The notes beneath the pieces are model-generated. The model searched no databases, was not told the origin of the DNA, and saw only the letters and a program-made list of their open reading frames with translations. The position numbers and the translations under genes are program-made. From contig DAOVER010000084.1 in NCBI GenBank assembly GCA_030668875.1, positions 1 to 8,413 on the forward strand: DNA of 8,413 nucleotides, in the 5' to 3' direction. Below, in pieces: positions 1 to 4,251 of the stretch (position 1 is the first letter of the stretch; each line of letters begins with the position of its first letter). The DNA comes from Candidatus Heimdallarchaeota archaeon (GTDB lineage: Archaea; Asgardarchaeota; Heimdallarchaeia; Heimdallarchaeales; Heimdallarchaeaceae).

Positions 1-333
1 TTTGTTAAACAACAAGGGTGGAAGATGGGAAAAATGTTTGCTGATATTGCTTCAGGGATGAACGAACAACGAAAAGGTTTACAGAATCTATTGAATGAAG
101 TGGCAACAACTAGCCCTTTTGCTGTCATCTGCACCTATGAAGATAGATTGGCAAGGTTTGGAACAAAAGTGATCAAACACTATTGCCAAACATTCTCAAC
201 AAACATCATTGCTATGCATAAGCAATTACAAACTACCAAGGAAGAAAAACTAATAGAAGATATGATCGCCTTGGTAACCTCCTTTGCAGGAAGATTACAT
301 AGACAAAGGAGAGGGAAAGATCCTCCTAGCTGA
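1..333 (+). CDS. tnpA: IS607-family transposase TnpA (serine recombinase), C-terminal part; frame +1 is open from base 1, so the gene is 5'-truncated by the window
   Basis: Serine-recombinase/IS607 motifs DIASGMNEQRKGL, VICTYEDRLARFG and EKLIEDMIALVTSFAGRLH; lies directly upstream of a TnpB-like gene. Confidence 0.92.
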   Translation, partial: FVKQQGWKMGKMFADIASGMNEQRKGLQNLLNEVATTSPFAVICTYEDRLARFGTKVIKHYCQTFSTNIIAMHKQLQTTKEEKLIEDMIALVTSFAGRLHRQRRGKDPPS

Positions 334-345
334 CTTTTCTTCGCC

Positions 346-353
346 TTTATATA
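346..353 (+). promoter_or_regulatory. Candidate archaeal TATA box (TTTATATA) between tnpA and tnpB
   Basis: TTTATATA lies about 20 nt before GTG373 and about 29 nt before ATG382. AGGTGA (371-376, SD-like) precedes ATG382. Confidence 0.4.
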
Positions 354-381
354 CCATTCTGTGGATAAGTAGGTGAAGACG

Positions 382-2289
382 ATGGTCTCACAAGCAACAA
401 AGAAAACACAAGTAGCTGTCAACTCTCACTCAAAGACGGTGATGCGGGGCTACCAGGTGGCGCTAAAATGTGTAGACCAGCACCAACGAGAAGAGATTAA
501 CCAAAGGATAAGAAAGCTAGAGGAACAGCAACTGCTCCTTCTTTCTCCGCAAATAGTAAAGAGGGCTGAAAAGTTGTTTAGATCCAATCCTAAGGAAGGG
601 TTCTTCACCCGCCAACTATGTAAAGAAGTGGGGAAAAGTCCTAATATAGCGGAGAGTGCTTTCCATTGGTTGCATATAGCAATCAAAGGGAAAAGAGATA
701 AGGAACAGAAAGTGCAGGGGTTGCTAAACTTTCTCATGAAAAATCCTCAACAACTTGTAGAATGGATGATTTTTGGTAGATCACCTTATACTGAAAGCAG
801 TTTAGGGAACTATTAGAAACTGAAAAGAAGGTACGTTATCAACCTCTTAACCAGCGCTAGACAACAAGCAGATGGATATTGGAGAAAGAAAAAGAAAGTA
901 ATGTATAGTTCCAACCATTTACAATTCAATTCTTTCCTTCCTTCAATAGTACAACAAGCTATAGTACAGGCGATAGATGACACACTTTTCTTTTACACCA
1001 ATGCTTTTGTTACTATTCCCAAAATAACTAAAAGGCAACAAGCCTTTTTAACCAAACTTAAACTACTGAAGAACGAACAAGCTGTCGTTGTCCCCTTTCT
1101 CGCCTCGTGGATTAACAGTCCTCAACTTTCTCGTTGGAAAAGTCTCAAAATATTAGCAGAACAACTAGCAACGATAATTGGGAAACCTTCCCGAAAACTT
1201 TTTTCAGCTGTCAGGCTGATTATTGTTTTCACACTCTTTGACCACTTCATGCAGAGTGCCCCTCAGTTAGTTAAAGGTCTCCCAGTAGCAAAAGTTGTTC
1301 CATTACCATTTAAAAAGAAAAAGAAAGGAAGATTACCCATAAAATTGTTAATGAAAAAAGATTATGTTATCACCCGACAAGGGAATGCAAAGGAATTGAC
1401 AGACCAGATTAATAAACAAGGATGGACCGAACTAGGTTTTCCTCAGAAAGGGAAGAAGAAACTTGTTACAAAAGCACTTTTCCCCTCTAAAGTACGAGAA
1501 TATATCCAGAATGGTGCAGAGCTCAAACTTTTCCAAGTTAGCAGTGGTCAAGCACCTAGTTACAAACCTCGAGTGGATGTAGTGCTCGAGGGAACAATGG
1601 ACTGTTTCCACTCCTCTACTCTTCTCCATACCTATCTCCCCTCAATTTCCGGAAGGAAAAAATCTGTTCTGGGTCTAGATATTAATCGCTTAGGGGCACA
1701 TATGGTAGCATTCAACACCTCTGTTTCTCTCCCCCCAGACATCTTGCTTCTAGCAGAACGTTACACTCACCTTACTGCTAAAGTTCTCCCTGCACTTCAT
1801 CGGGGGTTGATACGTAAACGTAAAGTTCGAGACGCTCTTGGTTTCTGTAAGTTGCAAGGAGAGCTCAATAGAGTTTATACTCGTCGTATGCGAATCATTC
1901 GCGAGCTTACTCGTCTTCTCCCCCACCTTCTTGCGGCAGTTATGGTGAAGAAACAGTGTAAAATCTTGAAGATCGAACAGTTAACTGTTGACCCCTCAGG
2001 TACTAAGGGAGCATTAGCTAAAGCTATTTACACCATGCCTGATAATCTCTTAATCTACAAGAAAGCTGTCTGGCTAGCTTCTCAAGAGTTAAGTTATCAA
2101 GTACAGTTAGAGTCTGTTTCCCCCTACCACACCAGCACTATTCATTATGGTTGTGGAGGAACGTTAGTTCGCAACCAAAGTCAGTATGATCATGCTCCTT
2201 GCAAAAAGTGTGGACGAAAAGTTAACACTCATACTAATGCTGCGCACAATATCGCTTCTCTCCCTGGTACACTTCTTCCTTCTTTATAA
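382..2289 (+). CDS. tnpB: Large TnpB-like RNA-guided RuvC protein (~635 aa if the in-frame TAG at 814-816 is bridged); possibly a pseudogene. The track splits it into 373..816 and 901..2289
   Basis: Both track ORFs are in frame +1, and 817-900 is open (KLKRRYVINLLTSARQQADGYWRKKKKV). Motifs: WED-like start VMRGYQVALK; RuvC-I VLGLDIN (Asp at 1678-1680); RuvC-II LKIEQL (Glu at 1975-1977); SPYHTS then Zn ribbon HxxC...CxxC; RuvC-III NTHTNAAHNI (His at 2230-2232 where Asp is canonical). Start could also be GTG373. Confidence 0.85.
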
Positions 2290-2295
2290 TCCTCT

Positions 2296-2398
2296 TCCCC
2301 TCAACGCACGTGAGGGGACCCACCAAAACGATGGTTAAAAAGTCTCTGGCAAGTTTGACCAAGTTTCATAACGTGCGTAAACAAAGTAATTTTCAGAT
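2296..2398 (+). ncRNA. Candidate omegaRNA 3' scaffold (hairpin plus pseudoknot) and guide (~2379-2398) of the IS607 TnpB; 5' boundary unknown
   Basis: 8-bp stem TCCCCTCA (2296-2303)/TGAGGGGA (2311-2318). Its loop ACGCACG (2304-2310) is the exact reverse complement of CGTGCGT (2372-2378). Small hairpins lie between (ACCA/TGGT, 2322-2335). Confidence 0.65.
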
Positions 2399-2613
2399 AA
2401 CTGAAGAAGACCTCGAAAACGTCGTGAATTGGATAAATCATAAGGGAGACCATTCATTAATGTTGAAGTACCTTTAATTGCCAACTTCATTAGAAGATTC
2501 TCAGTCAAGGACGAGTTGTTAGATAGAACAACGGGTCCAAGCTTGTGATCAAATTTAACCAGAACAACCCCTAAATCCAGAGAGTTATCATGTAATAGTT
2601 TGCATGATGACAT
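2379..2613 (-). pseudogene. 5' part of a uDENN/longin-like protein gene, apparently interrupted by the IS607 element
   Basis: GVVLVKFDHKLGPVV resembles the hydrophobic-strand-F(D/H)xxxGP start of uDENN/NPR2-type longin domains, followed by a helix and two strands. The last ~14 codons of the track ORF (2335-2378) fall inside the inferred element end. Confidence 0.5.
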
Positions 2614-4142: not shown

Positions 4143-4251
4143 TGGTGCCTCGACCGGGATTTGAACCCGGGTCTGCGGATTTTCCTGCTTTGTCACGCGG
4201 ACTTTCACATGTGAAAGTCCGCAATGATTGGCCGAACTACACCATCGAGGC
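4143..4251 (-). tRNA. tRNA-Glu (anticodon UUC) with a 31-nt insertion in the anticodon loop (most simply a 37/38 intron, 4211-4181); CCA encoded
   Basis: Acceptor GCCTCGA/TCGAGGC-A-CCA; archaeal Glu-type D-arm TGGTGTAGTTCGGCCAATCAT; anticodon stem GCGGA/TCCGC with CT-TTC-A; T-arm CCGGG-TTCAAAT-CCCGG. Length 109 nt, or 78 nt after removing 31 nt. Confidence 0.88.
4197..4222. repeat. Perfect 26-bp palindrome spanning the tRNA-Glu exon/intron junction
   Basis: gcggactttcacatgtgaaagtccgc is its own reverse complement. Confidence 0.97.

Follow-up and report, generated by a model that had tools for sequence, protein, structure and literature searches.

A covarying pseudoknot at the right end of IS607-type elements in Heimdallarchaeota, the probable core of a TnpB guide-RNA scaffold

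Genes at the locus

The window, i.e. the whole stretch of 8,413 nt that was analysed, is contig C87 of a Candidatus Heimdallarchaeota genome of 3.2 Mb in 99 contigs. All named homologues of its proteins, as well as all related loci, are from Candidatus Heimdallarchaeota MAGs. At its left end lie two genes of an IS607-type element and the spacer between them:

1 to 333, plus strand: 3′ part of tnpA (serine recombinase), truncated by the contig start (Pfam Resolvase, E = 6.6e-12)
346 to 353, plus strand: TATA-like box (TTTATATA) in the tnpA-tnpB spacer, read from the sequence
373 to 2289, plus strand: TnpB-like gene with one in-frame TAG (Pfam Cas12f1-like_TNB; the open reading frames 373 to 816 and 901 to 2289 are in one frame)

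Intact tnpA encodes 196 aa (L021:615-1205), and an intact element copy on contig C48 encodes a TnpA of 196 aa together with a TnpB-like protein of 638 aa. The window has TAG at 814 to 816, where the C48 copy has TGG (Trp148), and the remaining frame is open. Most simply, the TAG is a nonsense mutation, and the window copy would rely on TnpB made elsewhere. The TATA-like box is the probable promoter of tnpB. The spacer, ~40 nt long, recurs in gene-less mini-elements just 5′ of their RNA, and GTTTATATA is invariant in the alignment of these elements (A4). Further downstream, at 4146 to 4251 on the minus strand, Rfam has a 106-nt tRNA match that is uncalled by ARAGORN and is presumably an intron-containing tRNA.

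The protein of ~640 aa is TnpB-like, and its sequence matches in the PDB are Cas12f/TnpB. The RuvC-I Asp (D436) and the RuvC-II Glu (E535) are invariant. His620 stands at the position of the RuvC-III Asp of Cas12f/TnpB and is conserved to at least 90% across 17 diverse homologues; the motif NTHxNAAxNI aligns with NADYNAARNI of 8hr5. An Asp-to-His variant of RuvC-III has already been catalogued for some TnpB branches (PMC10691335), and the conservation of the His across the family places the protein in this class of rearranged sites. The RIIIr-4 branch is said to be without a zinc finger (PMC10691335), whereas the Heimdallarchaeota family has retained HxxC...CxxC. With His instead of the canonical Asp, the protein is a putative nuclease that may cleave DNA.

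Structure and covariation of the right-end module

The region at the 3′ end of the TnpB-like gene, which is adjacent to the serine recombinase gene tnpA, contains the following features:

2293 to 2378, plus strand: 86-bp right-end module common to all element types, i.e. the right end and the predicted core of an omegaRNA scaffold (~25 genomic copies, covariance model)
2296 to 2318, plus strand: hairpin 1, an 8-bp stem (TCCCCTCA, 2296 to 2303, with TGAGGGGA, 2311 to 2318) with a 7-nt loop (sequence and MFE fold; 97.8% of the cells paired in 58 sequences)
2305 to 2310, plus strand: 5′ strand of the pseudoknot, CGCACG, within the loop (pair counts over 58 right ends)
2326 to 2366, plus strand: closing stem, AAAC (2326 to 2329) with GTTT (2363 to 2366) (MFE fold)
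2333 to 2339 with 2354 to 2360, plus strand: stem 2, GGTTAAA with TTTGACC, inside the closing stem (MFE fold, covariation)
2342 to 2344 with 2348 to 2350, plus strand: inner 3-bp hairpin, inside the closing stem (MFE fold, covariation)
2343 to 2353, no strand: TCTCTGGCAAG, which corresponds in inverted orientation to the left-end motif CTTGCCAGA(A/G)G and overlaps stem 2 (comparison of left and right ends)
2372 to 2377, plus strand: 3′ strand of the pseudoknot, CGTGCG (covariation)

An 8-bp stem with the loop ACGCACG (2304 to 2310), complementary to 2372 to 2378, had been described in an initial sequence-only reading, and both can indeed be read directly from the sequence: the exact reverse complement of the loop, CGTGCGT, occupies 2372 to 2378. 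The heptamer is present at only two sites in the 8.4-kb window, for an expected count of 0.07, and two or more copies were found in none of 200 shuffles. The MFE fold includes hairpin 1 and a second hairpin, and RNAalifold gives the same helices for the closing stem, stem 2, and the inner hairpin. The energy of the MFE fold is unremarkable (z = −0.85), and therefore the folding energy provides no evidence.

Loci encoding relatives of the protein were fetched (78 loci), and 58 right ends were aligned (A2). For the whole structure, i.e. hairpin 1, the loop-tail helix, the closing stem, stem 2, and the inner hairpin, 95.3% of the cells are paired in the 58 sequences. As a control, the 3′ partners were slid by 1–3 columns, and pairing fell to 22–41%. 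Eleven pairs have double-sided changes, a count that is overstated to the extent that the aligned sequences are related and the events non-independent; the observed values were reached by none of 500 shuffles. Covariation is also seen within stem 2 and the inner hairpin, where pair 52-73 appears as UA, UG, or CG, pair 55-70 as AU or GC, and pair 60-64 as CG, UG, or UA.

The loop and the tail show compensatory changes as well, which had been proposed as a check of the pseudoknot and turned out in its favour. Six of the seven loop-tail pairs are conserved, and four change on both sides, namely 19-93 (CG 50, UA 5, AU 1, UG 1), 20-92 (GC 44, AU 7, GU 6), 22-90 (AU 57, UA 1), and 24-88 (GC 56, AU 1), i.e. 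from CG to UA or AU, from GC to AU, from AU to UA, and from GC to AU, respectively. Matched loop/tail haplotypes are found in many Heimdallarchaeota genomes, i.e. ACGCACG/CGTGCGT, ATGCACG/CGTGCAT, ACACACG/CGTGTGT, ACGCTCG/CGAGCGT, and CGCACAT/ATGTGCG. The variety of these haplotypes, together with a distant clade, reduces the concern about kinship.

A pseudoknot of 7 bp, extended to 8/8 with the neighbouring positions, had been suggested. The pairing stands, but its length has to be revised. Because the pair A2304-T2378 is present in only 31 of the 58 right ends, the conserved pseudoknot helix has 6 bp, 2305 to 2310 with 2372 to 2377. A2304 pairs with T2378 only in the subclade of the window; otherwise, this position is a variable 1-nt linker, which, going by general knowledge of RNA geometry, suits a classical H-type pseudoknot. 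The T2311-A2371 extension is present, in competition with the stem pair A2303-T2311.

The single-sided changes point to the strand. Those leading to G·U outnumber those leading to A·C by 9:1 in the pseudoknot and by 66:16 in the nested helices, an excess that speaks for pairing within a plus-strand RNA and against a symmetric double-stranded DNA site.

RNAalifold with 55 autonomous loci yielded no conserved helices 5′ of hairpin 1 in the last ~190 nt of the tnpB ORF, in agreement with the proposal of the sequence-only reading that most of the scaffold is 3′ of the tnpB stop. A cmscan search of the window (E ≤ 1) and of four related loci (E ≤ 5) gave no Rfam match to the module, TnpB-associated motifs included, but only tRNAs and chance matches.

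Module boundary, copies and gene-less derivatives

In every one of ~25 genomic copies, identity is lost exactly after ...ACGTGCGT (2378). Copies from nine other genomes have the same end-point, and 16 gene-less copies from nine genomes end with ...G(C/T)GT and then diverge. The right end of the element, which had been placed at about 2378, is therefore located precisely at this nucleotide.

The sequences 5′ of the module differ between copies. It is preceded by the 3′ end of tnpB in C87, C48, C76, and C37, and by an internally deleted tnpB in C53. The C15 copy is a tnpA-only element of 772 bp (G000:C15:30712-31483), in which the tnpA stop is joined directly to the module via the microhomology CTTTTCTTC. 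The C88 copy is an 83-bp mini-element that has lost hairpin 1. Many copies of the module are located ~55 nt from contig ends, indicating that the assembly is interrupted by the repeat. With a covariance model, the module was detected in 20 of the 23 genomes of the genus and in both genomes of a second genus; it was absent by this model from 36 genomes beyond the two genera, of which four belong to the same family but to three further genera, and 32 to different families of the order or class.

Autonomous copies are outnumbered by gene-less elements of ~400 bp, which form two families (b and c) with about 12 and 5 copies. Examples are G000:C95:100420-100820, G000:C29:51575-51972, and ~15 more, and they occur in at least nine genomes of the genus (A4). 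They start with the left end, which is followed by the tnpA-tnpB spacer, copied together with the TATA box (GTTTATATA), by a segment of ~170 nt, and finally by the 86-nt module. The ~170-nt segment covaries in 16 copies from nine genomes, with seven double-change pairs inside it; the 62 predicted pairs refer to the whole aligned gene-less RNA including the right-end module. No counterpart of this domain was detected in the autonomous element, and blastx and blastn revealed no tnpB-coding origin, but only similarity to the tnpA-tnpB spacer (promoter). A tentative and rather doubtful possibility is that the longer RNA of the gene-less elements, and not the 3′ tail of its own mRNA, is the main RNA partner of the Asgard TnpB. 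If true, these elements would be guide-RNA-only parasites with a scaffold extension that they have evolved themselves; conversely, the 640-aa D-E-H protein would have taken over roles that RNA performs in bacterial IS607 systems.

Retention of the module without tnpB, i.e. in the tnpA-only element, the 83-bp mini-element, and the ~400-bp gene-less elements, raises the question whether the hairpin and the complementary tail are right-end DNA features for TnpA (inverted sites or a cruciform) instead of an RNA pseudoknot. The module does contain an inverted motif, CTTGCCAGAAG, that is common to both ends: left-end positions 23 to 44 are an inverted copy of the right-end CTTCTGGCAAG (window 2343 to 2353, within stem 2). 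Judging from this sequence, it is likely a TnpA binding site, and such a putative site would explain why tnpB-less derivatives retain the module. The terminal YGT, moreover, appears to be the crossover core. Some of the conservation would then not be RNA-driven, because the module is partly a recombinase DNA site. We nevertheless consider it very improbable that the hairpin and the tail as a whole are explained in this way. Neither hairpin 1 nor the tail has a left-end counterpart in the comparison of the two ends, and hairpin 1 is gone from the 83-bp mini-element. The intermediates are G·U and not A·C, a preference not expected of a double-stranded inverted repeat, and the same loop-tail covariation is seen in a position-conserved paralogue clade between tRNA genes (see below).

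The gene-less derivatives bear also on a function within the tnpB mRNA, i.e. on the pseudoknot being a recoding or 3′-end element (stop-codon readthrough or mRNA stabilisation). The hairpin of the window starts 6 nt past the TAA stop, and in most relatives the tnpB ORF continues through hairpin 1 with a conserved tail, FPS(S/T)HVRG, both of which would be compatible with such a role. It is hardly credible, however, since the module is intact in the gene-less derivatives, which already disfavour this reading, the position of the ORF end with respect to the hairpin is variable, and the 3′ strand of the pseudoknot is fixed to the transposon end and not to the ORF.

We thus regard 2293 to 2378 as, very probably, an IS607-type right end of Heimdallarchaeota that doubles as the core of a plus-strand omega (re)RNA scaffold.

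Predicted guide, proposed function and known systems

Beyond the module, and at its last two nucleotides, three further features were assigned:

2377 to 2378, no strand: terminal GT, a probable recombination core common with the target pentamer AC(C/T)NT, and the last nucleotides of the predicted scaffold (empty-site comparisons)
2379 to 2398, plus strand: predicted guide (AAACAAAGTAATTTTCAGAT) from the interrupted host gene, of presumed length (flanks that differ per copy; orthologue in G016)
2379 to 2613, minus strand: N-terminal 78 codons of the host gene (~160 aa), which is split by the insertion (rest beside a left end on contig C96)

Each copy has a different flank, starting with the first base past 2378. 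All left ends in the genome start with ACCGT save one with ACAGT, and the sequences before them are unrelated. Five empty sites carry AC(C/T)NT in register (ACCGT, ACCAT, ACCAT, ACTCT, and ACTGT), and their flanks align base for base. The first is the insertion of the window itself, which is empty in G016, the closest relative (...CCATATCGAA ACCGT AAACGAAGTAATTTTTAGAT...), where exactly ACCGT precedes the window flank. Three elements of other genomes have empty sites in the genome of the window: L031 and L126 are occupied as ACCGT...GCGT, with ACCAT at the empty site, and L042 as ACTGT...GTGT, with ACTCT. The fifth is the C88 mini-element, which splits a gene, and the empty orthologue in G010 reads ...GGC ACAGT TGGG (ACTGT in the orientation of the element). 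In all examined elements but one, the C or T at position 3 of the left-end pentamer is the same as the C or T before the terminal GT of the right end.

Joining the left flank on C96, 5 nt, and the window from 2379 onward restores a frame of 156 aa, and 13 relatives have uninterrupted orthologues of the split gene with 158–213 aa. C40 was rejected as the left partner, because only C96 sensibly restores the host frame. The element part on C96 (C96:1-590) is without most of tnpA and is 91% identical to window 312 to 791 over 480 nt; this mismatch could possibly be due to nested or tandem elements, to a mixture of strains, or to a chimeric assembly. The C29 insertion splits a gene of a huge beta-helix paralogue family that has no close orthologue, and its frame phase is compatible with 2 or 5 nt.

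At the empty sites the right flank starts directly after ...G(C/T)GT, and the guide should therefore start at 2379. The sequence-only reading had already derived the guide from the flank; the copy-specific flanks and the empty sites bear out this start, while the length of 16–20 nt is assumed by analogy. Recombination of IS607 elements takes place between matching dinucleotides, and a fixed right-terminal nucleotide belongs to the scaffold in ISXfa1 (PMC10711439). For these reasons the GT at 2377 to 2378 looks like a shared recombination core, and the final YGT like scaffold and not guide. ACCGT, more generally AC(C/T)NT, is a candidate TAM that TnpB may read.

Several observations on these sequences can be added. 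At position 4, the empty pentamers often have another base than the occupied ACCGT (G000:C33:3015-3019, ACCAT; G000:C94:22242-22246, ACCAT; G000:C15:48687-48691, ACTCT), and in the target of the window this position is the synonymous third site of a Tyr codon. By eye, a 15-nt match to the predicted guide of the window, TAAACAAAGTAATTT, was seen 20 nt beyond the C15 right end; it is below the reporting threshold of BLAST and may be due to chance. Another match to the window flank, of 15–16 nt at C88:3526, is at chance level (E 0.88).

The following mechanism is compatible with these results. Hairpin 1 would present the loop CGCACG, pairing of which with CGUGCG (2372 to 2377) would close an H-type pseudoknot, and the intervening 53 nt would form the closing stem and the second hairpin. 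The RNA, once transcribed and processed, would continue into the host flank, so that about 16–20 nt from 2379 onward could serve as the guide. By analogy with ISDra2, ISXfa1, and ISFba1, the ~640-aa TnpB-like protein would bind the scaffold, and for the window copy it would have to be supplied in trans, because the gene of the window has a stop. The guide would locate the vacated site by an ACCGT-like motif followed by a guide match, and this site would be cut or marked, so that the element could be copied back.

A clade of paralogues, the proteins of which are 38–47% identical, has one copy seen in the genome of the window (G000:C95:33990-36090, P0122; loci L082-L102), and its position is conserved across genomes. 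It is located downstream of tRNA-Asn in some members and upstream of tRNA-Cys in others. The clade has its own hairpin and pseudoknot (CGCATAC/GTATGCG, CGCATGT/ACATGCG, and CACATGC/GCATGTG). The sequence at the guide position is conserved; here it is GGCATAGCCGCTTTGCTAAC, similar to the 5′ part of the adjacent tRNA-Cys read in antisense, and other members have what looks like an antisense T-arm of a tRNA. The clade may represent a TnpB system that is domesticated or specific for tRNA sites.

The paralogues fixed beside tRNA-Cys, with a guide-like flank resembling its antisense, and the replacement of the RuvC-III Asp by a nearly invariant His could also be taken to mean that the guide scaffold is real, but that the Asp-to-His RNP is not a homing nuclease and binds without cutting (TldR-like) or acts on another substrate. 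This is improbable in our view. The element is present in multiple copies with a different flank at each, there are recent insertions, neither D436 nor E535 varies, and other nucleases with an RNase H fold have His as a metal ligand. Furthermore, conserved rearranged sites such as Asp-to-His have been argued to stay active (PMC10691335).

The reading of the module as part of a guide RNA for a putative homing nuclease was compared with characterised systems. The reRNA of ISXfa1 folds into three stem-loops, and an apical loop forms a pseudoknot with guide-flanking nucleotides; this pseudoknot is required for activity, and a compensatory mutation rescues it (PMC10711439). Both are IS607 elements with a serine recombinase, in which the RNA extends (in the Heimdallarchaeota element, would extend) from the tnpB 3′ end across the right end into the flank, and they have in common the stem-loops, the apical-loop pseudoknot beside the guide, and one or more core-dictated terminal nucleotides in the scaffold (PMC10711439). 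In contrast to the ISXfa1 RNA of ~150 nt, the conserved structure of the Heimdallarchaeota module has ~83 nt, is nearly all downstream of the ORF, and belongs to an Asgard archaeal host; its protein of ~640 aa has the RuvC-III His and a predicted activity, and there is no sequence or Rfam similarity. Characterised IS607 reRNAs in general have 150–190 nt, compared with about 83 nt for the conserved structured part of the module.

ISFba1 has a RAGATH-18-derived reRNA with a 187-nt scaffold, two pseudoknots, and a 5-nt TAM (PMC11061315). An RNA-guided IS607 TnpB, a pseudoknotted scaffold, and a 5-nt TAM beside the left end (PMC11061315) correspond to the system predicted here. However, the ISFba1 scaffold fits RAGATH-18, for which the window has no match at E ≤ 1, and the ISFba1 TAM is AGGAG/GAGGG, compared with the candidate AC(C/T)NT of the Heimdallarchaeota element. 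ISDra2 is similar in that its apical loop pairs with guide-flanking nucleotides, as has been shown experimentally (PMC10711439). It differs as an IS200/IS605 element with a Y1 HUH transposase and a canonical DED RuvC site, and its scaffold, most of which overlaps the ORF, extends as far as the transposon boundary. The ~400-bp b/c elements, with left end, promoter, and right-end module, resemble MITE/PATE-like gene-less OMEGA derivatives, but they add a covarying 5′ RNA domain of ~170 nt. Because no Rfam model matches it, the module, judged by its sequence, is an undescribed family that is shorter than the characterised ones, albeit of a known RNA kind.

The results define a scaffold boundary, a pseudoknot, a guide start, and a candidate TAM for a TnpB family that was confined to Heimdallarchaeota in the searches run, and these could be the inputs for a bench test of the Asp-to-His 640-aa enzyme as an active RNA-guided nuclease. 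They account for a recurrent 86-bp repeat that breaks MAG assemblies and splits host genes, and they tie the ~400-bp structured-RNA repeats to the same system. The eukaryotic Fanzors descend from IS607 TnpBs (PMC10711439), which makes IS607 systems of Asgard archaea of comparative interest.
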